A stretch of 23,986 nt of DNA, taken from positions 1 through 23,986 of IMG/VR virus record IMGVR_UViG_2529292907_000023; one strand, given 5' to 3'. This stretch comes from a virus (Duplodnaviria; Heunggongvirae; Uroviricota; Caudoviricetes). Numbering within the stretch: the stretch's first letter is position 1; each line of letters starts with the position of its first letter. Positions 3,850 through 23,986 of the stretch are shown here, in pieces. The position numbers were made by a program, and so were the translations under genes. The notes below the pieces were generated by a model that was given only the letters and a program-made list of their open reading frames with translations, did no database searches and was not told the DNA's origin.

Positions 3850-5703
3850 TTATGATGATGCCGGTGCATTTATCTCCAGCACCAGACTTTCTATCTCAAC
3901 GCCATACGCTGCATTTTTGGTAATATCCGTCAGCGTCAGTGCATTCAGTCCCACTGTCAGACTGTCTTTTATGACCTGGAATGCCGGGCCAGCCACTCCA
4001 TTCAGTTTCGGAGTAACCGTGGCACTGCCGGCGGTGAACACCAGCTCCAGCGTCTGCCAGTCGTTACTGTAATTCCCGAACTCGCCCAACTTTGTGTTTC
4101 CGGCTTTCTTGTGATGCATCAGATTCAGTTTGCCGTCTGTGGTCTGGGTGAAGAACGACATCAGGAACGGGTTACCAGTCCCGGTCATCGCCACGACGTC
4201 AGGTAACGCTACATCGGTATACAGATAAATTCCCAGACCGAACTGATTGTTGGTCAGTGCGCCTGACAGTCGAAACTTACAGCTCAGTCTGCCACCCCGT
4301 GTCAGCAGGGAGACTGCGTCATCCACCGGGCGCGTCAGGGACCAGGCTTTATTGCTCTGCTTGGTGATCTTAAATACACCATCTGACAACTGAATTCCGC
4401 CATTCTTAATGCTCCAGCCCTGCGCAGCAGCATCTCCGGCTGTCGGCAACAGGGAGATTGTGCGTACGGATGCATCTTCAGACGGCCCCGATGGCGTGTC
4501 GACGCCGGGCGAGGGTTTGATTTCCGGTGCCTTACCACTGATGAAGGCTGAGGTGCGCCCGGCTGCGTTCAGAATAGCGGTTGCCATACGATCCGGAATA
4601 ATGCTCCTGCGCGCCCATGAACTGAAATGTGTCGGGCGGTTTGATGATACCTGGTTTCCATTCGTTCTCGATGCCGCACCGTAATATCCTGATGCCGGAA
4701 TATCCGGATCTTCTGCCGGTGCGTTAGTGGCGGTATTGACGCCGTTACCGTCTGTCATGAAGGGCACAAAATAAACGCCCTCACTCTCCCTGTTTTTATA
4801 CCCTCCGTACACGGTGTCGTACTGGGTAGCGTATGTATTTTTCCAGTAATACGTCGTGTCACCACAAATCCACGGTACAACTGCAGCACTGCCGCCATGG
4901 CACTGCGCGTTAAATCCGGAAAGGTCAGTACGGAACTGCTTCAGCATGGCCGTGAACAGGTCCGGTTGCTGTGCGTAGGTGGCAGCGCTCATGTCAAATT
5001 CGCCCTGCATCCAGCACACCGCCAGCAACACATTTTTCGGGTTCTTCTGTAATGCAGCTTTAGTGCGCGCAATCAGGTCCTGATATAGCGGTTTACCCAC
5101 ACCCCAGCGTGCCGAATCCTGGCTGGCCCCCGCGTCCGCACTGAATGTCCCCTCCGCGCCCTGGGTGAATGCCGAACCACCACGACAGCATGGTACCAGC
5201 AGGATCCCCGCGTTATTCGGGATATACGGGAGCAGTTTTTTGGCAATATGTAAGCCCTGGCCGACACAGCCGTACTGCCCTTTGCTCAGGTCTGCCTTCG
5301 GATGATTCAGCGTACTCATATCCTGCACATCATGCAGACAGTGGTCAGCCGGGATGATGTCGTTATACGTACAACTCTCTCCACCCGGAGTTACCGTGCT
5401 GCGGCGCGCCAGCTGTTTAATGCGCGGATCCGGAGCATCGTAAGAATCCGGTAACGGAAGCCCTTCACCGTAGGCCATGCCGTTGGACTGTCCGGCAAGC
5501 ACAACCACGTAGAACCAGTCCGGCTCAGATGAAGGGCCGACCTGTGGATCTCCTTCAATAGCCACCGCCTGCATCAGTGTGTACGGCGTAATGGCAACCG
5601 GTCCGCCATATGGCTGCCAGCCCTCTTTCAGTTTGTGTGTCAGCTTTTCCGCAAGGTCTGACGGCGACGCCGCCCTGACAACATCATAGTGTTTAAATGC
5701 CAT
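3850..5703 (-). CDS. nanS-p: Prophage sialate 9-O-acetylesterase NanS-p (DUF1737 N-terminal domain plus SASA/SGNH esterase domain)
   Basis: 617 aa; N-terminus MAFKHYDVVRAASPSDLAEKLTHKLKEGWQPYG (DUF1737-like) followed by the GQSN esterase motif (VVLAGQSNGMAYG); strong RBS GGGAGGA; sits downstream of the tRNA cluster as in Stx and other lambdoid prophages of E. coli. Confidence 0.8.
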   Translation of the reverse strand: MAFKHYDVVRAASPSDLAEKLTHKLKEGWQPYGGPVAITPYTLMQAVAIEGDPQVGPSSEPDWFYVVVLAGQSNGMAYGEGLPLPDSYDAPDPRIKQLARRSTVTPGGESCTYNDIIPADHCLHDVQDMSTLNHPKADLSKGQYGCVGQGLHIAKKLLPYIPNNAGILLVPCCRGGSAFTQGAEGTFSADAGASQDSARWGVGKPLYQDLIARTKAALQKNPKNVLLAVCWMQGEFDMSAATYAQQPDLFTAMLKQFRTDLSGFNAQCHGGSAAVVPWICGDTTYYWKNTYATQYDTVYGGYKNRESEGVYFVPFMTDGNGVNTATNAPAEDPDIPASGYYGAASRTNGNQVSSNRPTHFSSWARRSIIPDRMATAILNAAGRTSAFISGKAPEIKPSPGVDTPSGPSEDASVRTISLLPTAGDAAAQGWSIKNGGIQLSDGVFKITKQSNKAWSLTRPVDDAVSLLTRGGRLSCKFRLSGALTNNQFGLGIYLYTDVALPDVVAMTGTGNPFLMSFFTQTTDGKLNLMHHKKAGNTKLGEFGNYSNDWQTLELVFTAGSATVTPKLNGVAGPAFQVIKDSLTVGLNALTLTDITKNAAYGVEIESLVLEINAPASS

Positions 5704-5925: not shown

Positions 5926-5931
5926 GTCCAT

Positions 5932-5955
5932 AAGAAAGCCCCTCCGGAGAGGGGC
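5932..5955 (-). terminator. Minus-strand intrinsic terminator-like hairpin (7-bp stem, tetraloop)
   Basis: GCCCCTC-cgga-GAGGGGC; on the minus strand it is followed by TTTCTTAT. Abuts the plus-strand terminator, forming a convergent pair. Confidence 0.45.
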
Positions 5956-6151
5956 TGGAGAGTGGCGCTATGTGCCATTGCATGGTGCCGGGTGCCTCCC
6001 GGTGAATTCAGTACCAGCACCTGAATCCGCGATTATCCCATATACCTACTCGCTGATTGCCCCTCCGCACAGGGGGATTCACCATGCCAGTTTCTTTTAA
6101 CAAACTCCCCGCAAAACAGACAACTGTCAACCGTCTGAATTGTGAGACATT

Positions 6152-6191: not shown

Positions 6192-6268
6192 TGGCGCGTT
6201 GTACTGGATTCGAACCAGTGACCGATTGCTTAGAAGGCAATTGCTCTGTCCGGCTGAGCTAACAACGC
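6192..6268 (-). tRNA. argO: tRNA-Arg (anticodon UCU)
   Basis: Reverse complement GCGTTGTTAGCTCAGCCGGACAGAGCAATTGCCTTCTAAGCAATCGGTCACTGGTTCGAATCCAGTACAACGCGCCA folds as a cloverleaf (7-bp acceptor, GTTCGAATC T-loop, CCA end); anticodon loop CTTCTAA. Symbol assigned only by positional analogy to phage 933W. Confidence 0.9.
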
Positions 6269-6281
6269 AGGGTACAGATAA

Positions 6282-6358
6282 TGGACCGCCATCGAGGACT
6301 CGAACCCCGCGCAACCAGCTTCGAAGGCTGGCGCTCTATCCTGATGAGCTAATGGCGG
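6282..6358 (-). tRNA. argN: tRNA-Arg (anticodon UCG)
   Basis: Reverse complement CCGCCATTAGCTCATCAGGATAGAGCGCCAGCCTTCGAAGCTGGTTGCGCGGGGTTCGAGTCCTCGATGGCGGTCCA; anticodon stem CCAGC/GCTGG with loop CTTCGAA (U33, anticodon UCG, A37). Symbol by positional analogy only. Confidence 0.85.
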
Positions 6359-6365
6359 TATGTGA

Positions 6366-6441
6366 TGGTGGCCCTTGCTGGATTTGAACCAGCGACCTGG
6401 CGATTATGAGTCGCTCGCTCTCACCACTGAGCTAAAGGGCC
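6366..6441 (-). tRNA. ileZ: tRNA-Ile2-like (anticodon CAU, lysidine type; Met cannot be excluded from sequence alone)
   Basis: Reverse complement GGCCCTTTAGCTCAGTGGTGAGAGCGAGCGACTCATAATCGCCAGGTCGCTGGTTCAAATCCAGCAAGGGCCACCA is very similar to E. coli ileX (tRNA-Ile k2CAU) as I recall it; anticodon loop CTCATAA. Confidence 0.9.
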
Positions 6442-6490: not shown

Positions 6491-7540
6491 TCAAACGATT
6501 AAATCCTGAACTTCCCTGACTGTCTGCTCAAAACGTCCGGTCTCCAGCTCAACACCAATCGCACGACGCCCCAGTGCCATCGCCGCTTTTACCGTTGAAC
6601 CCGACCCCATGAAAAAATCCGCAACCAGATCACCAGGACGACTACTTGCGCTGATTATCTGCTGCAGCATTTCTGCCGGTTTTTCGCACGGATGTTTCCC
6701 TGGATAGTACTGCACCGGTTTATACGTCCACACATCGGTGTACGGCACCTGCACCGTCACACCGAAATACCGCCGCAAATTTTTATATTCACTCAGCAGT
6801 TCCATATACTGCCGGTTCAGCTCACTGTATGTGCTGACCAGCTGGTGGTGTGGCTTTTCCAGTTCCCCGCGCTGATGTTTCTCTTCTGCCACCCGGGCAA
6901 ACAGCGACTGTAATTTCAGATAATCGCTTTCGTTCGGTAGCTGCCACTGACTGGCACTGAACCAGTGCGGCACCATGTTTTTCTTTCCTGTGGCATCTGC
7001 AATCTGTTTTGCCGTTATCCCCAGGGCAGCGCGCGCATCACGAAAGTAAGCAATCAGCGGGGCCATCACATGCTGTTTCAGTGCCCTGCCCTTCGCCTCA
7101 TACCCGGCATCTTTCGGACGATACGGCCCCTGATAATGTTCCGCGAACAGAATGCGCTCTGTGGCGGGGAAATACGCCCGCAGGCTTTCCTTGTTGCATC
7201 CGTTCCAGCGTCCGGACGGCTTCGCCCAGATAATATGGTTCAGCACACTGAAGCGTTCACGCATCATGATTTCGATATCAGATGCCAGGCGATGACCACA
7301 GAACAGGTAAAGACTTCCGGCAGGTTTCAGCACCCGCCAGAACTGCGCCAGACACTGGTCCAGCCACTTCAGGTAATCATCGTCGCCCTTCCACTGGTTA
7401 TCCCAGCCCTCAGGCTTCACTTTAAAGTACGGCGGGTCCGTGACTATCAGGTCAACAGAATTTTCGGGTAACGACCGGATAAATTCCAGGCAGTCGGCGT
7501 TGATTAACTCACAACTGGATATTTTTACAGTATTAGCCAT
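6491..7540 (-). CDS. Orphan DNA methyltransferase (beta-class N6-adenine or N4-cytosine MTase)
   Basis: 349 aa; motif IV DPPY (LIVTDPPYF) near the N-terminus and AdoMet-binding motif I FFMGSGST near the C-terminus (beta-class order); no adjacent restriction endonuclease candidate. Confidence 0.85.
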   Translation of the reverse strand: MANTVKISSCELINADCLEFIRSLPENSVDLIVTDPPYFKVKPEGWDNQWKGDDDYLKWLDQCLAQFWRVLKPAGSLYLFCGHRLASDIEIMMRERFSVLNHIIWAKPSGRWNGCNKESLRAYFPATERILFAEHYQGPYRPKDAGYEAKGRALKQHVMAPLIAYFRDARAALGITAKQIADATGKKNMVPHWFSASQWQLPNESDYLKLQSLFARVAEEKHQRGELEKPHHQLVSTYSELNRQYMELLSEYKNLRRYFGVTVQVPYTDVWTYKPVQYYPGKHPCEKPAEMLQQIISASSRPGDLVADFFMGSGSTVKAAMALGRRAIGVELETGRFEQTVREVQDLIV

Positions 7541-13613: not shown

Positions 13614-13804
13614 GGACGCACCTCCGCCGTAGTTACGTATTTAACCGGGCTACCTTTCATTGAGATGGTTTCACACATCTCTGCCGCTTTCAGTTCCGCT
13701 GTTTTTCTGGATTTATAGCGACGGTGCCAGACAGATACATCCGTGCGAACTGATACATCGTTTCTGTATTCCGTAGTGGAGATGATGATTTCGTAACTAA
13801 TCAT
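13610..13804 (-). CDS. Hypothetical protein (64 aa)
   Basis: 4-nt overlaps with neighbouring ORFs. Confidence 0.45.
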   Translation of the reverse strand: MISYEIIISTTEYRNDVSVRTDVSVWHRRYKSRKTAELKAAEMCETISMKGSPVKYVTTAEVRP

Positions 13805-14364
13805 GGGCGAACCTCCTTGTCAGAACCATTCAGCCTGGAATCAACAAGTGCAGCGCCAAAAACAGCATCACCAACACGGTCGTACAGTTTGCTAGCCAGC
13901 GGAGATTCAACGGCCTTAAGCATTGGATAAAGCTGGCTTGTCCAGATTTGATGGATTTCACGCAAATGCAGGTATACGCCTCTGGCGTTTCGTGCGACAG
14001 CTGACATATCAGACGCATCGGCACCTGATAAACTCTTCTCCATCAGGTTAAAGGCGTTGATGTATGCCTCTTTGAACCGGGCAGCACGTTTACCAGTGAA
14101 GCCCATGGCAAGAAACGCAAAACCGTCGCGGGTGATTTGGTAACAAGGGAGCTTGCGTGTACCACCGTTCGGTTGATTTACCGAAATCGATGTCTCCGCA
14201 AAATTGCGGGCACAAAACTCAGGGGAACAATCCAGAGTGCGGATCTTTTTCAGCACATCGTCATGACGCTTGGAGAAGAAGTTGGCAACAGCCAAAGAAG
14301 TGGTAACGGCCTGGCCGTTGTCAATGGTGATTTCAGGTTGAGTGAGGGCTGGGATCGTAGCCAT
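13801..14364 (-). CDS. Rha-family phage regulatory protein (Phage_pRha-like domain)
   Basis: From ATG 14364 with GGAGG RBS: QAVTTSLAVANFFSKRHDDVLKKIRTL … YQITRDGFAFLAMGFTGKRAARFKEAYINAF resembles the Rha domain consensus as I recall it. The ORF stays open in frame to 14664 (Gly/Ala-rich, no RBS), so the N-terminus is uncertain. Confidence 0.55.
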   Translation of the reverse strand: MATIPALTQPEITIDNGQAVTTSLAVANFFSKRHDDVLKKIRTLDCSPEFCARNFAETSISVNQPNGGTRKLPCYQITRDGFAFLAMGFTGKRAARFKEAYINAFNLMEKSLSGADASDMSAVARNARGVYLHLREIHQIWTSQLYPMLKAVESPLASKLYDRVGDAVFGAALVDSRLNGSDKEVRP

Positions 14365-14748
14365 GATGGCAGCCTCCGTTGACAGTGAAAAACTTCCACC
14401 ACCGGAAACGCCAATTTCACTGGTGGTGAACTGGACGGGGTTGGCGTAACCGGCGTCAACGGAGACCGGCGCACCTTTCGGTGCCCCCGCCCAGCCCACC
14501 ATAATCTGGATGTGAGCAAATGCGGACGATAAAAAAGACGCTGACGCGTCATACATCGCCGTTGACAATTTCAGGACGCCAATCCCGGCACCCGCTTTAT
14601 AAGGTGCAGAGACAGTGTAACGTCCCGAAATTGCAGAATCAATATTTGGTCTTGAAATGATCATATAGCTGCTGATATCTTTAGAACTGTTCTTGGATGT
14701 TTCAGAGCCGTTTTATGCGAAACAGCTCCCCGTTATTGATGTTGAGTG

Positions 14749-16576: not shown

Positions 16577-16993
16577 ATGATCAATAAAGCTACAACTCTT
16601 GACTGTCTCGAAGAACTGAAAAACCTCGGCAGCCTCATTACACTAATAGCAAAAGCAACACCTGATGCTACGCTCTCTAGCGATATAGAGTCATGCGCAG
16701 GACTGGCATGGGATATGACAAATAGCATATCCAGAAAGCTATCGTCAGCAATGCTTTTACAGAACAAAAATTCTGCAATCAACAACCGTCTTCGCACCCA
16801 ACGCGAAGCCTGCGGCTTAACAACCGCCGAACTCGCCAGGCTGCTCGATCTCGATGAAGAAATTATCATCCAGTGGGAGAGCGGAGAGTATGAACCAACT
16901 ATCAGTATGCTTATCCCACTGGCAAATATTCTTGGCTGCGATGCGATGTGGCTGTTAACTGGCGAAACGGCAGCAAAGGATATCTGCGCATGA
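16577..16993 (+). CDS. XRE-family HTH protein (138 aa) with C-terminal HTH and N-terminal domain of unknown function
   Basis: C-terminal INNRLRTQREACGLTTAELARLLDLDEEIIIQWESGEYEPTISMLIPLANILGCDAMWLLTGE is a classic XRE HTH; the N-terminal ~60 aa are unrecognised; AT-rich. Confidence 0.6.
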   Translation: MINKATTLDCLEELKNLGSLITLIAKATPDATLSSDIESCAGLAWDMTNSISRKLSSAMLLQNKNSAINNRLRTQREACGLTTAELARLLDLDEEIIIQWESGEYEPTISMLIPLANILGCDAMWLLTGETAAKDICA

Positions 16994-17232
16994 AAAACTG
17001 TAATGCTTACCATATTTGTCTCATTGGTGAATTGCTTGATTTCATACAAAAAAGCACTGCGCGCAATAATAAAAATATAACATATGGTGATCTGGTAATA
17101 ATTTCAGAGGATATAAAGAGCATCGCTCTTAAATTCAAGAGCGACGCGAGTATTGATGACGCTATTTACGCTTATCTTGCGAAAATAATTGACGGATCCA
17201 AAATCCAGCCTCTGGATGAACCTCGTCAGTGA
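16990..17232 (+). CDS. Hypothetical protein (80 aa), translationally coupled to the upstream HTH gene
   Basis: ATGA start/stop overlap at 16990-16993; AAAGGA RBS-like sequence upstream; AT-rich; no recognisable motif. Confidence 0.5.
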   Translation: MKNCNAYHICLIGELLDFIQKSTARNNKNITYGDLVIISEDIKSIALKFKSDASIDDAIYAYLAKIIDGSKIQPLDEPRQ

Positions 17233-17568: not shown

Positions 17569-17934
17569 ATGAAAAAGTTCGAAAACATAACTGTTCTCCA
17601 TGTTGATGACTTTGATTATACAAACCCGGAACTTCTCCCGGAGGTTGTAAAGGCAATAGATGTTGCCGATATAGTGATTAGAGAAAAGAGAATTGTCAAA
17701 AACAGGCTCGCATGCACTTCAGGAGCAATGACAGAAACAACCTCACAGCAAGATAATTACGAAGGCATTTGTCTGGAGCCTGATTCATTTGCGGTAAATG
17801 TTTATCATTTATTGCATGCAACACAGGTATTACATATGTCCAGTAATCACGAAACGAAAACACTCGGCAGCGAAATTCTGAGTTTTGCATGTGAGTATAC
17901 AAAAGCTGCTGCCGAAAAAGAATTAGCGCAATAA
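17569..17934 (+). CDS. Hypothetical protein (121 aa), AT-rich orphan gene
   Basis: GAGGAAG RBS; about 38% GC versus about 50% for neighbouring phage genes; no recognisable motif. Confidence 0.6.
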   Translation: MKKFENITVLHVDDFDYTNPELLPEVVKAIDVADIVIREKRIVKNRLACTSGAMTETTSQQDNYEGICLEPDSFAVNVYHLLHATQVLHMSSNHETKTLGSEILSFACEYTKAAAEKELAQ

Positions 17935-18322: not shown

Positions 18323-18904
18323 ATGCAATACGATGAATTCCAGGCTGAAGCAACAGCCAATGGTATACGAACTGGCAGTATGACGATTGATTATCACGAC
18401 GCCATACGTCGTCTGGATGCCGGAGAATTCGATACTCCTAATGTGCGAGGTTTACGTATCCTTCAGTGTCTGGCGCAAGCCGACGAAGCAGGATTACTGG
18501 GTAAACTTCCGGTTGAGATGAAGGTTGCTCAGTGGCGATGGTTGTATGTGACGACATTCATCAACGAAGAAGAAGACAAGAACGGCACAATTGATATCCT
18601 GAATGAACACGGAACAACTGAACACGCCGTGGTATATAACGGGATGTATGGGTTTATGACGATATATCCCGGCCCCATTCGATTTGCCTTACAACAGTAT
18701 ATTGAATGGAATTTAATTCAAAAATACGGCGAAGCTGAAGGAATGGGAAGAGCGCTGTTTCTTTATCAGAAAATGCTCACTACTTCCCCTGATAAAGGTT
18801 TCATTCTTTCAGATATGGGTCGAGAAGGGCTTGAAATCCTTCTGGATGAAATTATTAACGAAATGAATACTCATGGCATGCAATCCGAAACAGATATTAA
18901 GTAA
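18323..18904 (+). CDS. Hypothetical protein (193 aa)
   Basis: ATG 5 nt after the upstream stop with GAGGA RBS; no recognisable motif. Confidence 0.6.
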   Translation: MQYDEFQAEATANGIRTGSMTIDYHDAIRRLDAGEFDTPNVRGLRILQCLAQADEAGLLGKLPVEMKVAQWRWLYVTTFINEEEDKNGTIDILNEHGTTEHAVVYNGMYGFMTIYPGPIRFALQQYIEWNLIQKYGEAEGMGRALFLYQKMLTTSPDKGFILSDMGREGLEILLDEIINEMNTHGMQSETDIK

Positions 18905-19163: not shown

Positions 19164-19470
19164 CTCACAACTAACCATAGAAACGGCCCTGAATGTCGGC
19201 CTGGCGCTCCTTGGTTATTTTTACATCGTGTTCTGCAGCGGACGGTGGCTGTCGCTGTTGTTCCTGAAAAAATGGAATAAACGCCGTAAGCAGGATGAAC
19301 GCCAGAAGGCAATGAATGCGTTTTCCGAAGCCTTCGGAATTGACGGCATGGAACCAGGGGATCCAGCTCGCGCAATCAGCAGAGGGGGTGTAGTAATCCT
19401 TGTATATCGGAGTGAAGAGAAAAATGACGATCACAAAACAACGAGTAGAAAAAATCATATATCGCCATGA
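19153..19470 (+). CDS. Small membrane protein (105 aa, one predicted TM helix)
   Basis: AGGTAAG RBS; hydrophobic segment ALNVGLALLGYFYIVFCSGRWLSLLFL followed by a basic stretch KKWNKRRKQDERQK. Confidence 0.5.
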   Translation: MATDSQLTIETALNVGLALLGYFYIVFCSGRWLSLLFLKKWNKRRKQDERQKAMNAFSEAFGIDGMEPGDPARAISRGGVVILVYRSEEKNDDHKTTSRKNHISP

Positions 19471-19738
19471 AATGGGACTGAACAGCGATGTCACTGCCGA
19501 AGAGGTTTATGACCTGGCTGTACTGGCGCTGAATTTATCAAATATCGCAAACCTGAAGCGATACGAGCTTGATATGGATGGTTGCGACTCGTGCGGTCAG
19601 GATTGTGGCGCAGATATGACTGAAGATCCTGATGGTGATTATGTCCTGTTTGATGACGTGGTTAAGTTGTTTGAATTTGATACAACCACTCAAAAGTTAG
19701 AAATCCCGGCAAAGGAGGCTGCCAGTGAGCAAGATTGA
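19424..19738 (+). CDS. Hypothetical protein (about 105 aa; alternative start at 19472)
   Basis: Acidic C-terminal half and a Cys cluster (CDSCGQDCG); overlaps the upstream ORF by 47 nt if 19424 is used. Confidence 0.45.
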   Translation: MTITKQRVEKIIYRHEMGLNSDVTAEEVYDLAVLALNLSNIANLKRYELDMDGCDSCGQDCGADMTEDPDGDYVLFDDVVKLFEFDTTTQKLEIPAKEAASEQD

Positions 19739-19907
19739 CTATCAGGCACTGCGCGAGGCGGCGGAACAGGCAACGCAAGATGAATGGGTAGCATATATTT
19801 GCCGGGTCATAACGGCATTTATCCTGCGCGCACGTCTGAGGGTAGGCATTGCGGATACTTTATTGACTGGCCTGGCGTCTGTCAGGGGCGGGAGAGCATC
19901 AACATGA
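19725..19907 (+). CDS. Ea22-like protein N-terminal module (60 aa), possibly a truncated or frameshifted paralog
   Basis: GTG start with AAAGGAGG SD; N-terminus MSKIDYQALREAAEQATQDEW parallels the MSEINYQALREVAER start of the gene at 20407. Confidence 0.4.
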   Translation: MSKIDYQALREAAEQATQDEWVAYICRVITAFILRARLRVGIADTLLTGLASVRGGRAST

Positions 19908-20410
19908 GCATCAGAACCTACGCAGTGAATTGCAATGACGCATGGCTAAACACCGAAGGTGATGACATCTCCGGCTCATACGTTAAGTACAAAGACCATC
20001 AGGAAGTGGTTGCCGCTCTTGAGGCCAAGTGCGCGGCGCTGGCAGCGGAGAATGCGGGAATAAAGTCTGCAATTCCAGAATCACGGGATATTGAGGATGA
20101 CAATGACAATATGGATGACGTATCTCTCGCGGAAGACTTCGGGTTCAATCATGCAATAGAACGGATGAGGAGACAGATACCTGAAACGCCAACCACTGAT
20201 GCTTTCCTGGCTGAAGTCCGGGCGCAGGGGGTGGATGCTGCTATAGAAGCTGCAAAAAATCTGGTGGCCCAAGAATATGAGTATAAGGATTTCAAAGCGG
20301 CGCAGAGTGATTGCTGTATGTACCCTGGTTCAGACCTGGTAGGGAAGGTTGAAATGACTGAGTGGTTAGTTGACTTTGCTGCCCAGCTTCGCAAAGGAGG
20401 CAACCAGTGA
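19904..20410 (+). CDS. Hypothetical protein (168 aa), Ea22-like central region
   Basis: ATGA overlap with the preceding ORF; Ala-rich coiled-coil segment (VVAALEAKCAALAAENAGIK) and an acidic stretch. Confidence 0.5.
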   Translation: MSIRTYAVNCNDAWLNTEGDDISGSYVKYKDHQEVVAALEAKCAALAAENAGIKSAIPESRDIEDDNDNMDDVSLAEDFGFNHAIERMRRQIPETPTTDAFLAEVRAQGVDAAIEAAKNLVAQEYEYKDFKAAQSDCCMYPGSDLVGKVEMTEWLVDFAAQLRKGGNQ

Positions 20411-20892
20411 GCGAAATTAATTACCAGGCACTGCGTGAGGTGGCGGAACGTGCAATTCCAGCAATGGAACGCCTGTTAATGTTGCCAGCTGATGATGACT
20501 TGTTAAGTGAACAGGAACTTAAAGATTACGGTGTGGATATTGATGCGCTCAACGCCTTCAAATTTCTGACCGGACCAGAAACCGTGCTGGCACTGCTGGA
20601 TGAACGGGAAAGAAACCTGCAATACATCAAAAGCCGCGATCAGGAGAACGAGGATATTGCGCTAACGGTAGGGAAGCTGCGCGTTGAGCTTGAAGCAGAA
20701 AAACAGCGGGCAAAAGTTCTATTTATGGAAAATGCTCGGCTTAAGTCAGGCATAGCCGGTCTGATACACCTCGGTATTCGATATGCAGATGTTGAGGTCA
20801 TGAAAATTGCTGGAGATGCCCAGCTTTCTACCCCATGCACTGACAGCATCATAAACAGCATTGCAACAGGCATTCGCATCAAAGGAGAGTGA
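20407..20892 (+). CDS. Ea22-like family protein (161 aa)
   Basis: GTG start with AAAGGAGG SD; N-terminal MSEINYQALREVAER and VLALLDERE resemble the prophage Ea22-like family as I recall it; C-terminus TGIRIKGE is encoded by a 24-bp repeat. Confidence 0.55.
   Translation: MSEINYQALREVAERAIPAMERLLMLPADDDLLSEQELKDYGVDIDALNAFKFLTGPETVLALLDERERNLQYIKSRDQENEDIALTVGKLRVELEAEKQRAKVLFMENARLKSGIAGLIHLGIRYADVEVMKIAGDAQLSTPCTDSIINSIATGIRIKGE
20869..20892 (+). repeat. 24-bp direct repeat, copy 1 (GGCATTCGCATCAAAGGAGAGTGA)
   Basis: Identical 24-mer recurs at 21363-21386; it encodes the C-terminal residues and stop of one gene and the SD of the next. Confidence 0.9.
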
Positions 20893-20894
20893 GA

Positions 20895-21386
20895 GTGCAG
20901 ATTTCACCGGTTACTCTTCGTGTTGCGAAGGCGTTTATATCCAGACATCACCGACACAATAAACCCCCGGTGGGGCATAAATTCAGCATTGGTCTGAGAA
21001 ATGATGCCGGAGAATTGATAGGTGTGGCGACAGCCGGTAGACCTGTTGCACGACATTTGGACGATGGATTAACGCTTGAAGTAAATCGCACATGTACCAC
21101 AGGAGAACGCAACGCTAACAGCGCGCTTTATGGTGCTGTCTGGCGGGCAGCAAAGGCTATGGGTTATCAACGTTGTATTACGTACACCCAGGCAGATGAA
21201 TCAGGAGCATCTCTTCGCGCAGTTGGTTTTGTTCGTGTGAAAGAGCTTCCTCCAAGAAAAAGCTGGGCGGAATCAAGCGTCGCCCTGCGGAGTAAACGCG
21301 ATCCGGTCGGAAACGGTGGTGTTCCTCGTGTGCTCTGGGAAATCAGGAGAATGAGTACCACTGGCATTCGCATCAAAGGAGAGTGA
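20895..21386 (+). CDS. Conserved prophage protein of unknown function (about 163 aa), His/Arg-rich N-terminus
   Basis: GTG start (20889 or 20895) after AAAGGAGAG SD; motif RHHRHNKPPVGHKFSIG; flanked on both sides by the same 24-bp repeat and ends with the same TGIRIKGE tail as the upstream gene. Confidence 0.55.
   Translation: MQISPVTLRVAKAFISRHHRHNKPPVGHKFSIGLRNDAGELIGVATAGRPVARHLDDGLTLEVNRTCTTGERNANSALYGAVWRAAKAMGYQRCITYTQADESGASLRAVGFVRVKELPPRKSWAESSVALRSKRDPVGNGGVPRVLWEIRRMSTTGIRIKGE
21363..21386 (+). repeat. 24-bp direct repeat, copy 2 (GGCATTCGCATCAAAGGAGAGTGA)
   Basis: Perfect copy of 20869-20892; the 27-nt neighbourhood matches at 26 positions. Confidence 0.9.
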
Positions 21387-21387
21387 T

Positions 21388-21555
21388 ATGAGCGCTATAA
21401 CCAAAGAACGTATCAAATTATTCATTAAAAATCCGCTTGATAACGGACTTACTCGTGGTGAACAAATGGAACTGGCACGGATTGCGCTGGCATCGCTGGA
21501 AGCAGAGCCGGTTGTGTTCTGGTTTGAAAAATATCAAGAAGGGGCTACGGCATGA
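21388..21555 (+). CDS. Small ORF (55 aa)
   Basis: Begins right after the repeat-encoded SD; ATGA overlap with the next gene; contains [12 protein letters not shown], echoed as [11 protein letters not shown] in the downstream protein. Confidence 0.4.
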
Positions 21556-21896
21556 CGACTTTTACCAGAGAGCAGTTAATAGCTCACGCAGAGGAGACTA
21601 TTGAAGCACAGAGACTGTGCATACCGGGCACAATCGACCATGACATCATCCGCACATATAAGATGGATATTGCTGTTCTGGAAATCGCACTGGTATCGCT
21701 GGCAGCAGAGCCAGCCGGTAAATTGCATGAATACAAACCAGTGGGATATCAGCGTCTGGTCGATGAGTTAACCATGCTGGTAAAGCAGTTAACCTGGCAA
21801 CTGAGGAAAGCGAAGCCAGACTGCAAATTACCGGATAAGGCGATGAGTTATCTGGAGCGGAACGGACTGATAAGCGTGGAGGATATTTTACGATGA
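21552..21896 (+). CDS. Hypothetical protein (114 aa)
   Basis: ORF with translational coupling on both sides. Confidence 0.55.
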
Positions 21897-21976
21897 CCTG
21901 GCCTGAAGCATTAACAACGGTAGGAATTGCGATGGCGGTGGCGCTGGTGGTGTATTCGATTTGCCGCTGGGGATAA
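21893..21976 (+). CDS. Small hydrophobic peptide (27 aa)
   Basis: ATGA overlap with the upstream stop; [27 protein letters not shown] is a single TM-like segment. Confidence 0.3.
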
Positions 21977-21980
21977 CCAC

Positions 21981-22223
21981 ATGTTCGCTTTGATTCAACG
22001 CGGTCAGATATACACGGACAGAGCCGGATACCCCGTGGTGATTACTCGCATCACTGAGCACTCAGTGTTCTTTCGACGGATGGACGGACGATCCGGGCGG
22101 GTACGCATTGGTGAGTTAAACTGCCTGTTCGAACATATTGACCACCAGGAGTACCGCAAAATTCTCGCGGACACTGAGCAGGAAAAGCACCTGAAAAAAT
22201 TACGAGCCATAAAAAGGAAGTAA
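21981..22223 (+). CDS. Hypothetical protein (80 aa)
   Basis: ATG at 21981 a few nt after the preceding small ORF; basic C-terminus. Confidence 0.5.
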   Translation: MFALIQRGQIYTDRAGYPVVITRITEHSVFFRRMDGRSGRVRIGELNCLFEHIDHQEYRKILADTEQEKHLKKLRAIKRK

Positions 22224-22226
22224 AGA

Positions 22227-22373
22227 ATGAATAAAGCATTTGAACGATGGGTCCACCAGCGTTACGGCAATCGCTATGACCTGACGCGAGATGTTGACGG
22301 CTTCTACTGTCGTGAAGTTGTGAAGCGAATGTTTGAAGTGTGTTGCCACTGCCGTGGGCTGAGTGTTGTGTGA
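22227..22373 (+). CDS. Small Cys-rich hypothetical protein (48 aa)
   Basis: GGAAG RBS-like sequence upstream; CxxxxxCCHC pattern near the C-terminus. Confidence 0.35.
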   Translation: MNKAFERWVHQRYGNRYDLTRDVDGFYCREVVKRMFEVCCHCRGLSVV

Positions 22374-22381
22374 GGTAATAC

Positions 22382-22618
22382 ATGGGCAATGTGATTCAAC
22401 TGGCTCCCAATGAATGGGTTTGTGAAAGCGTTCTTATCGCAATTACCGGGCTCAAACCAGGCACAATTCTTCGGGCCCGGAAAGAATGCTGGATGGTTGG
22501 AAGAGAGTATATTCACGTATCACCAGACGGTAATCCAAAGCCTTCCAGTGAATGTATGTATAACAGAAAAGCAATAGATGCCTGGGTCGCCTCAATGAAA
22601 AACAAACAACCCAGGTGA
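22382..22618 (+). CDS. xis: Excisionase-like protein (Xis)
   Basis: 78 aa immediately upstream of the integrase; GAGGT RBS; MGNVIQLAPNEWVCESVLIAITGLKPGTILRARKECWMVGREYIHVSPDG matches enterobacterial prophage excisionase-like proteins as I recall them. Confidence 0.65.
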   Translation: MGNVIQLAPNEWVCESVLIAITGLKPGTILRARKECWMVGREYIHVSPDGNPKPSSECMYNRKAIDAWVASMKNKQPR

Positions 22619-22673
22619 TTTAATATCATGAAATATGTAAGCTCGTATCGCTCTTGGGCGTCTGGAGGTATCG

Positions 22674-23986
22674 ATGGATAAAGTCAAATATCCAACAGGC
22701 GTCGAAAACCACGGCGGCACATTACGCATCTGGTTTAATTTTAAAGGTAAACGTGTCAGGGAAAATCTTGGTGTCCCTGACACTGCCAAGAACAGGAAGA
22801 TCGCCGGGGAACTGCGGACATCAGTATGTTTTGCCATCCGCACAGGAAGCTTTGATTATGCTGCACAGTTCCCTGACTCCCCCAACCTTCAGGCTTTTGG
22901 GGTAAGTAAAAAGAAATTACGGTGAAGGAACTTGAAGAAAAGTGGCTGGATCTGAAACGAATGGAAATCTCTGCAAATGCATTCAATCGCTATGAATCCG
23001 TTGCAAGAACGATGGTTCCGAAAATTGGAGGCAGTAGACTGGTGTCATCGGTAACCAAAGAGGAATTGCTGTATATCAGGAAAGATTTGCTGACCGGGTA
23101 TCAGAATTCAACGAAAAACAAAGCAGCAGCAAAAGGACGGAGCGTCGTTACTGTAAATTATTACATGACGACAATCGCTGGAATGTTTCAGTTTGCTGCA
23201 GATCACGGTTACTTAGAAGCAAATCCCTTCCAGGGAATTAAGCCTCTTAAAAGAGCCAGGGCAGAGCCAGATCCGCTAACTCGTGACGAATTTATTCGCC
23301 TGATAGATGCTTGCCGACATCAGCAGACGAAAAACCTGTGGTCATTGGCTGTGTACACAGGAATGCGTCACGGTGAACTGGTCTCCCTGGCCTGGGAAGA
23401 TATCGATCTGAAGGCAGGAACAATTACCATCAGGCGCAATTATACGAAACTTGGTGAGTTCACTCTACCGAAAACTGAAGCAAGCACAAACAGGGTTGTG
23501 CACCTTATCCAGCCCGCTATCAGTGTCCTGAAAAATCAGGCTGAAATGACAAGACTGGGTAAGCAGTACAACATCAAGGTGCAACTACGTGAATATAGAC
23601 GTTCAGTGAACCATGAATGTACTTTCGTGTTTAACCCTCAAGTGGTTAGAAAAAGCGAACAGGTAGGTTTTGTCTACAAAGTCGATTCTGTAGGTGACTC
23701 ATGGGAAACAGCCATTAAGCGTGCAGGGATCAGGCATCGAAAGGCATACCAGTCACGACACACTTATGCGTGCTGGTCATTATCTGCCGGAGCAAACCCA
23801 AGCTTCATTGCCAGCCAGATGGGCCATGCAAGTGCCCAGATGGTATTCAATGTATACGGAGCATGGATGACTGACAGCAATGCAGAACAGATCGCAATGC
23901 TGAATCAGAAGCTGACAGATTATGTCCCAATGATGCCCCATAGTCACCAAAGTGACACCAGAGGCTTATTAAAATCAGTAAGTTAA
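22674..23986 (+). pseudogene. int: Phage tyrosine integrase interrupted by a -1 frameshift in an A-run (arm-binding domain 22674-22925; core and catalytic domains 22922-23986)
   Basis: N-terminal ORF carries an arm-binding-type motif (KYPTGVENHGGTLRIWFNFKGKRVRE); the second ORF carries the catalytic core (R…HTYACWSLSAGANPSFIASQMGHASAQMVFNVY). The frames switch at GTAAGTAAAAAGAAATTACGG (about 22902-22922); a -1 shift at the AAA-AAG codons reads through as ...VSKKEITVKELEEKW... Confidence 0.75.

Follow-up and report, generated by a model that had tools for sequence, protein, structure and literature searches.

A dual-coded 24-bp linker at ea22-family gene boundaries as a probable site of gene exchange in lambdoid phages

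A 24-bp sequence, GGCATTCGCATCAAAGGAGAGTGA, occurs twice on the plus strand of a 23,986-nucleotide stretch of a lambdoid prophage (Caudoviricetes; IMG/VR record IMGVR_UViG_2529292907_000023, positions 1 to 23,986, hereafter the window), at 20869-20892 and at 21363-21386, and brackets there a cassette of a single gene. We interpret this 24-mer as a conserved boundary, or linker, sequence of the lambdoid ea / exo-xis region, at which short-homology recombination would shuffle modules and cassettes. To this reading, which is built on sequence comparisons, we assign a probability of roughly 0.7. The locus is a clear and well-resolved example of the known shuffling of phage genes, and not a new mechanism. 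Its parts are listed below, with hotspots referring to the ends of BLAST high-scoring segment pairs (HSPs); loci retrieved for comparison are given by numbers starting with L.

20407-20892, plus strand: Ead/Ea22-like gene, 161 aa (Pfam PF13935 Ead_Ea22, E 4.2e-31; phrog_368, phrog_250)
20869-20892, plus strand: linker copy 1, GGCATTCGCATCAAAGGAGAGTGA, encoding GIRIKGE and a stop codon, identical to the 3' end of lambda ea22; HSP-end hotspots at 20871 and 20892
20895-21386, plus strand: cassette gene of the XF1762 family, Mom-like with a predicted GNAT fold, 163 aa, GTG start (NF045478; phrog_1384; AlphaFold2 model)
21363-21386, plus strand: linker copy 2, the identical 24-mer; HSP-end hotspot at 21388-21390
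21388-21555, plus strand: downstream gene, 55 aa, MSAITKER..., translationally coupled to the linker (phrog_3323, phrog_60); found directly after Ea22 in empty-site loci

The two copies are exact and are the only ones in the window, where no further match with up to three mismatches was found. Two or more matches of the 24-mer were seen in none of 100 dinucleotide-preserving shuffles. The repeat can be extended to 27 nt at 96% identity (20866-20892 and 21360-21386), the preceding codon being ACA in one copy and ACT in the other, both for threonine. Copy 1 forms the last seven codons and the stop codon of the 161-aa open reading frame (ORF), and copy 2 does the same for the 163-aa ORF. Both proteins end in TGIRIKGE, and a BLASTP alignment between them is limited to these eight residues. 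The Shine-Dalgarno (SD) sequence AAGGAG lies at 20882-20887 in copy 1, 7 nt before the GTG at 20895, and at 21376-21381 in copy 2, 6 nt before the ATG at 21388. The stop codons occupy 20890-20892 and 21384-21386, leaving a gap of 1-2 nt between linker stop and next start, and the GTG start is backed by relatives beginning with MQISP at the same position. The 24-mer carries three codes: the last seven codons GIRIKGE, a stop codon, and the SD of a tightly coupled next gene. The original prediction, which had described perfect repeats that give two proteins a common end and each following gene its SD, is confirmed in all these points. No Rfam family of structured RNA matched the linker region within 19-23 kb.

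The linker is found in many phages. Lambda ea22 itself has the exact 24-mer as its 3' end, and in phage HK620 the 24-mer lies at the boundary between hkaG and hkaF. In P7, the boundary between upf88.3 (Ead-like) and upf89.0 (L290, locus 547-1750) is a 100% match to a 37-nt query built on the 24-mer; linker-like matches to this query were present in 389 of 50,697 phage records. The linker is also present in Stx phages and in P22-like phages of Salmonella. An exact scan of IMG/VR returned at least 120 contigs with the 24-mer, nearly all with a single copy, and always at a gene boundary. The anticipated occurrence of the 24-mer in related prophages was therefore borne out. The linker is foremost the normal 3' end of ea22-family genes, lambda ea22 included, and is not peculiar to the cassette.

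A megablast of positions 20300-22000 against phage genomes gave no full-length match, and many partial matches ending exactly at the repeats. For example, the match to Salmonella phage VSe13 stops at query position 593 (window 20892), while Escherichia phage PhiR44_2 (P2-like, PV340564.1; L002, locus 1208-2281) matches only query positions 572-1091 (window 20871-21390). In PhiR44_2, which has a P2-type portal (GpQ), the complete XF1762 cassette follows a C-terminal fragment of Ea22 whose end is NIGIKGE. The same pattern of partial matches was seen in 2,558 of the 5,426 complete E. coli genomes, where the recurrent ends were query positions 465 and 984 (window 20871 and 21390). Neither the linker nor the ea22-like modules are confined to lambdoid phages, as they are also found as ea22-like insertions in P1/P7-like and P2-like phages.

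Outside the phage records, a scan of genome contigs for the 24-mer (L291-L328) returned mostly short or low-coverage contigs in unrelated taxa, among them Streptococcus, Streptomyces, Shewanella, Bacillus and Prevotella assemblies, or contigs of about 48.4-48.5 kb. Its presence in unrelated taxa probably reflects contamination of public assemblies with lambda control DNA. Plausible as genuine hosts are Escherichia spp., Shimwellia and Phytobacter.

The gene between the repeats is variably present. In five loci (L007, L012, L051, L090 and L091), the counterparts of window 20584-20892 and 21360-21512 abut without the cassette, and their alignments overlap on a single linker copy. Flanks abutting on one linker copy are, in such comparisons, the signature of gain or loss between direct repeats. 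Two other loci (L205 and L206, from E. coli AR_0372 and 100416) have flanks 99-100% identical to those of the window and hold other content in the slot, and one more (L146) has a window-like arrangement with a different downstream gene. The same cassette was also found with other genes upstream of it, and with at least four further genes downstream. Presence and absence of the intervening gene, as had been expected, is documented by the five empty sites and by the two with alternative content. The distribution supports the view of a linker with the RHHRHNKPP-motif gene (20895-21386) as the exchanged unit, and recombination would be the mechanism.

The genes on the two sides of the linker assort independently. 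All fetched loci were pooled, duplicates were removed and a 15-nt core was required, which left 147 distinct junctions. With 14 upstream and 24 downstream types, of which 72 combinations were seen, these also bear out the expectation that other gene boundaries carry the same linker. In a four-gamete test, 185 quartets (a pair of upstream types by a pair of downstream types) had all four combinations. Because a 45-nt span (9 nt to the left, the 24-mer, and 12 nt to the right) was excluded in defining the flank types, the crossovers would fall within about 45 bp. Each position of the linker holds 2 bits of information, a value that drops below 1 bit within ~10 nt on either side. When 19400-22700 (3.3 kb) was compared by BLAST with the fetched loci, 211 of the 703 internal HSP ends lay in the 80 nt of the two linker zones. 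In summary, a short sequence is conserved at a module boundary between unrelated flanks, it recurs across phages, and the modules around it assort independently, as expected of a boundary sequence.

The tail of the cassette protein is linked to the repeats around its gene. Relatives of XF1762 (n=120) are mostly 153-154 aa long and end in ...RVLWEIR(R/A) with 0-3 further residues, and the addition MSTTGIRIKGE occurs in Escherichia-type forms only. In the window, the protein core ends in ...WEIRR, and MSTTGIRIKGE is an appended tail. Protein similarity was used to select 77 XF1762 loci. Of these, 44 have exact direct repeats of at least 15 nt on the two sides of the gene, and all 44 are tailed forms; in the 14 loci with tail-less forms (153-154 aa), the flanking repeats were at most 6 nt long. 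On this comparison, the XF1762 tail is acquired, not inherited. Three other lineages have their own linker variant on both sides of XF1762, namely ...GCCGCTGGCATCAAGGTGGAGG... (L200, L201), GGGAGGCTGAGTGATG (L189) and TTGAGACAGGGGGTGA (L198). An attempt to derive the 3' linker fusion to XF1762 (MSTT spacer, WEIRR to GIRIKGE) from a tail-less Klebsiella-type arrangement was not convincing.

On the Ea22 side, 80 genes were sampled by their N-terminal half. A linker-type tail was present in 71 and the exact 24-mer in 38, while the same sample contained at least eight unrelated C-terminal domains. The linker variant sites in this sample are two synonymous and five non-synonymous, and thus give no sign of selection on the peptide. 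One linker, AACATTCGC..., is a hybrid of the AACATTGGC... and GGCATTCGC... types, as would be expected from a crossover inside the linker. Upstream of the linker in the IMG/VR locus L092, a 177-aa HNH_3 + AP2-like endonuclease ends in ...HGVAGIRIKGE, showing that a free-standing homing-type endonuclease, too, occupies a linker slot with an Ea22 tail.

Other variants of the linker were observed. A very common E. coli XF1762 variant (P0002, P0081; a cluster of 890 member sequences) ends in ...MSTTVIHIKGE, two non-synonymous changes away from GIRIKGE, which suggests that the tail peptide is not tightly constrained. At several loci (L004 at 2156, L214, L241-L251), GGAGAGTGA is replaced by GGAGGTGAGTAA(TG), giving the tail IRIKGGE before the stop codon and a TAATG stop-start overlap; the same downstream gene (MRVACIG...) always follows this variant. 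An internal linker (..AGIRIKGDAGEQNDEKP and stop) was seen in L249 and L267.

The cassette gene itself is a candidate DNA modification gene. Its product belongs to the XF1762 family, with 201.5 bits over residues 3-136 against the NCBIfam equivalog model NF045478 (cut-off 50), and falls in phrog_1384, annotated as 'Mom-like DNA modification protein' in PHROGs (4.6e-41). The score against the Pfam family Mom (PF25680), 21.5 bits, is below the gathering threshold of 27.1, and a precomputed PF25680 match is present in some of its close relatives. An AlphaFold2 model based on 30 homologues has a mean predicted local distance difference test (pLDDT) score of 84.9, with low confidence in the last ~13 residues, shared tail included. 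The best fold match of this model in the PDB is Mom of phage Mu (8bv8, S124A; E 1.9e-7, TMq 0.71), followed by many GNAT acetyltransferases. A sequence search of the PDB with the XF1762 profile returned nothing meaningful, and Mom and the other GNATs came from the fold search only.

Mu Mom has a GNAT fold and carries out a Gly-tRNA-dependent hypermodification of adenine (PMC13219725). The predicted GNAT core of the cassette protein is closest to Mom by fold. However, the protein is shorter, with 163 aa compared to about 230 aa, and covers ~55% of Mom (TMt 0.54-0.58). Furthermore, the helix-turn-helix (HTH)-like insertion at about residues 175-209 of Mom, which was reported to be essential for momylation (PMC13219725), is not evident in the cassette protein, as judged by its short length.

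How could such a linker promote exchange? The same 24-33 bp between unrelated modules would offer an island of identity to the many phages that circulate together, and it would be kept in place by also encoding the stop codon and SD for translational coupling. Red-beta and other Rad52-like annealases of phages, or RecA of the host, could carry out crossover at the linker. Left and right modules would be paired anew when two phages undergo a single crossover, whereas an unequal crossover between linker copies at different positions would add or remove the DNA between them. In the window, the unit between the copies would be the 494-bp cassette, a gene for an XF1762-family Mom-like GNAT that has acquired a C-terminal tail encoded by the linker. 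The length of the linker is 24 bp, or 33 bp where the upstream codons are CGCGCCGCT. The minimal segment for efficient pairing is 23-27 bp for Red-beta and 31-34 bp for RecA (PMC3945230); the linker thus reaches the minimum of Red-beta and comes near that of RecA. Both the homology-driven crossover and the enzymes acting in it are what we infer from these comparisons.

Some points weigh against recombination at the linker. The evidence for it is comparative throughout, and the SD and the stop-start layout are under functional selection, which could by itself keep some of the sequence unchanged. The plus-strand ORFs between the repressor and the ea region include no recognisable Red, Erf or RecT recombinase. 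The counts and enrichments given above are biased upward, because retrieval of the loci relied in part on the exact 24-mer, the XF1762 protein or the Ea22 N-terminus, and because IMG/VR contigs are redundant; the qualitative picture is independent of this bias. Finally, some XF1762 loci (L137, L138) share only ~10 nt, GGAGAGTGA, with the upstream boundary, which means that the full linker is not needed at every junction.

The main rival to exchange at the linker is that the sequence is constant because of its function only. Translational coupling through SD and stop-start, perhaps together with a useful Ea22 tail, would preserve it, and random illegitimate joins would be filtered by selection, as in a Hendrix-type model. 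This accounts for the SD, which is canonical and correctly spaced, and for a stop codon 1-2 nt from the next start. It also fits the diverged variants, which keep the SD and the stop-start layout though the peptide changes (GIKVEAE, GIKEESE, GINLETGGE), as well as the junctions that share just GGAGAGTGA. Yet SD and stop need only ~6-10 nt, while the identity seen in 14 unrelated upstream contexts extends over 24-33 nt and takes in every third-codon position. Unlike in random joins, the shared block almost always has its left edge at one and the same codon, in the same frame. The ratio of synonymous to non-synonymous sites gives no sign of purifying selection on the peptide, and the existence of a hybrid linker is a further difficulty. 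We therefore consider function as the sole cause to be unlikely.

A second possibility is cleavage in or close to the linker by a sequence-specific nuclease, such as an HNH endonuclease of the sort often encoded in this region; cassettes would then be gained and lost by break-stimulated, homing-like repair instead of spontaneous crossover. The HNH_3 + AP2 endonuclease gene of L092, itself with the AGIRIKGE tail in a linker slot, and the HNH endonuclease genes annotated beside Ea22 genes in VSe13 and ArgO145 could be seen in this light. In the window, however, no endonuclease gene lies in or next to the cassette, XF1762 has a predicted GNAT fold, and most linker junctions are without an HNH neighbour, which makes such homing very improbable.

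Target-site duplication by a transposon, attC-like integron sites, or ancient paralogs with a conserved C-terminus are hardly credible: direct repeats around one gene and a shared C-terminal peptide are their sole support, while the cassette has no terminal inverted repeats, transposase or IntI, the linker is not palindromic, and the 24-mer is single-copy in more than 100 other contexts, lambda ea22 included. As an integron cassette, the unit would be flanked by inverted repeats, which are absent from its ends, and the sole integrase in the window is the lambda-type Int of the prophage. A transposon or insertion sequence (IS) would have a transposase between the duplicated target sites, but the cassette encodes only a GNAT protein, and the supposedly duplicated sequence pre-exists as a single copy elsewhere. 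Ancient paralogy, the scenario under which the original prediction would have failed, does not hold either, as only the 8-aa tail aligns, the families and folds differ, and most relatives of XF1762 lack the tail, ending in ...WEIRR plus 0-3 aa.

An extension of the linker-exchange reading is that linkers come in 'dialects'. Each pool of enterobacterial temperate phages may keep its own ea22-tail/SD linker, and newly arrived genes, XF1762 among them, would come to lie between copies of the local version and to carry it as a C-terminal fusion. GIRIKGE is the type of Escherichia-type loci, and AAGIKVEAE/VEVK, AAGIKWEAE or IETGGE types are found in other lineages. We put this forward tentatively, as a possibility with the odds still against it.

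Boundary sequences of this kind have a history in lambdoid phages, and seven of them have reportedly been described in the metabolic domain. Within the theory of modular evolution, the proposal that short conserved boundary sequences act as recombination foci in lambdoid phages is credited to Susskind & Botstein 1978 and, for phage HK620, Clark et al. 2001 (PMC3029335). As far as these sequences are described in that citing paper, they resemble the linker in being short, conserved, and situated at module boundaries of the early (metabolic) region, with unrelated flanks that assort independently. In contrast to them, the linker lies inside a coding sequence, where it encodes an 8-aa tail and doubles as the ribosome-binding site of the next gene. 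It also differs in occurring twice in one genome, bracketing a single-gene cassette with empty sites elsewhere.

Ea22 proteins are mosaic, with variable C-terminal domains (PMC10834534). Those with unrelated C-terminal domains all end in K/R-G-E ('+GE'), a motif whose significance was called unknown (Dydecka et al. 2020, PMC7093339). The tail described here ends in the same manner, in ...KGE. What differs is that the DNA for K-G-E-stop, AAA GGA GAG TGA, is the SD plus stop codon of the linker. Since the '+GE' end is also found on proteins other than Ea22, namely XF1762 and the HNH-AP2 endonuclease, the reason for it would be at the nucleotide rather than at the protein level.

Relaxed, short-homology recombination by Rad52-like proteins is a further parallel, as 23-34 bp of identity suffice for temperate phages to exchange DNA with defective prophages (Martinsohn et al. 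2008, PMC2327257; De Paepe et al. 2014, PMC3945230). However, those studies treat diverged homology flanking mosaics in general and no specific dual-coded linker, and no recombinase was identified in the window. The cassette also resembles a moron in being a single accessory gene, variably present between conserved neighbours. It differs in being translationally coupled into the pL operon; a moron was rejected as an identity, as 20300-22000 has no promoter-like site, no terminator follows the gene or brackets it, and the GC content is like that of the neighbours, without compositional contrast. Among the papers searched for the 24-mer or its peptide, none contained either, the single text match being unrelated.

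The plus strand of the prophage carries a pL-type operon, which runs up to an excisionase (DUF1233, 22382-22618) and the adjacent lambda-type integrase (22922-23986). Replication, methylase, tRNA and late-region genes are on the minus strand. The plus-strand ORFs 16948-17232, 17569-17934 and 18323-18904 had no Pfam match.

Two further repeats were observed near the linker. The first, a 65-nt boundary repeat with 83% identity between its copies (19709-19773 and 20391-20455), lies at the 5' ends of two tandem Ea22-like genes. It includes the SD AAGGAGG, a GTGA stop-start overlap, and the conserved N-terminus M-S-x-I-[DN]-YQALRE. This 65-nt segment has matches of 85-98% in many of the fetched loci, and ea22 genes thus appear to carry conserved linkers at both ends. 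The first of the two Ea22-like genes (19725-20410) is split into two overlapping frames (19725-19907 and 19784-20410) and is therefore probably frameshifted; its equivalent in E. coli AR_0372 (L205) is annotated as 'frameshifted' by RefSeq. The second repeat, CGCTGG(C/A)AGC(A/G)GAG, occurs at 20037-20050, 21494-21507 and 21697-21710, and encodes an '...LEAEP / LAAEP' motif common to two small downstream genes. HSP ends accumulate at 21501-21514, and the second repeat may therefore mark a further recombination junction at a domain boundary.

Farther away on the minus strand, Rfam matches above the gathering score were the small RNA STnc100 (5926-6116), three tRNAs (6195-6441), C4 antisense RNA (14419-14506) and isrK (14531-14607), the last two adjoining a Rha/Ash-type antirepressor gene (13801-14664). 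Also on this strand, a 617-aa DUF1737/SASA sialate-esterase-like protein (3850-5703) and an N6/N4 DNA methylase (6491-7540) both resemble the late region of Stx-type phages. On the plus strand, an ORF at 1-1536 runs off the left end of the window and has rve and Mu-transposase C-terminal domains, which points to an IS or transposase inserted in or beside the prophage.

Phage mosaicism has been debated as homologous exchange at short conserved linkers versus random illegitimate joins followed by selection, and the locus offers an unusually clean, countable example on the linker side. For the unexplained '+GE' end of Ea22 proteins, it suggests a reading at the nucleotide level, as the ribosome-binding site of the next gene. 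The cargo is a candidate DNA-modification or anti-restriction gene, by its predicted fold, that would move through the linker slot. The claim of exchange at the linker is directly testable by lambda genetics. If linker dialects do exist, the linker would be a combined adaptor for expression and recombination that decides among which phages accessory genes can be traded, in the manner of an integron lacking an integrase.

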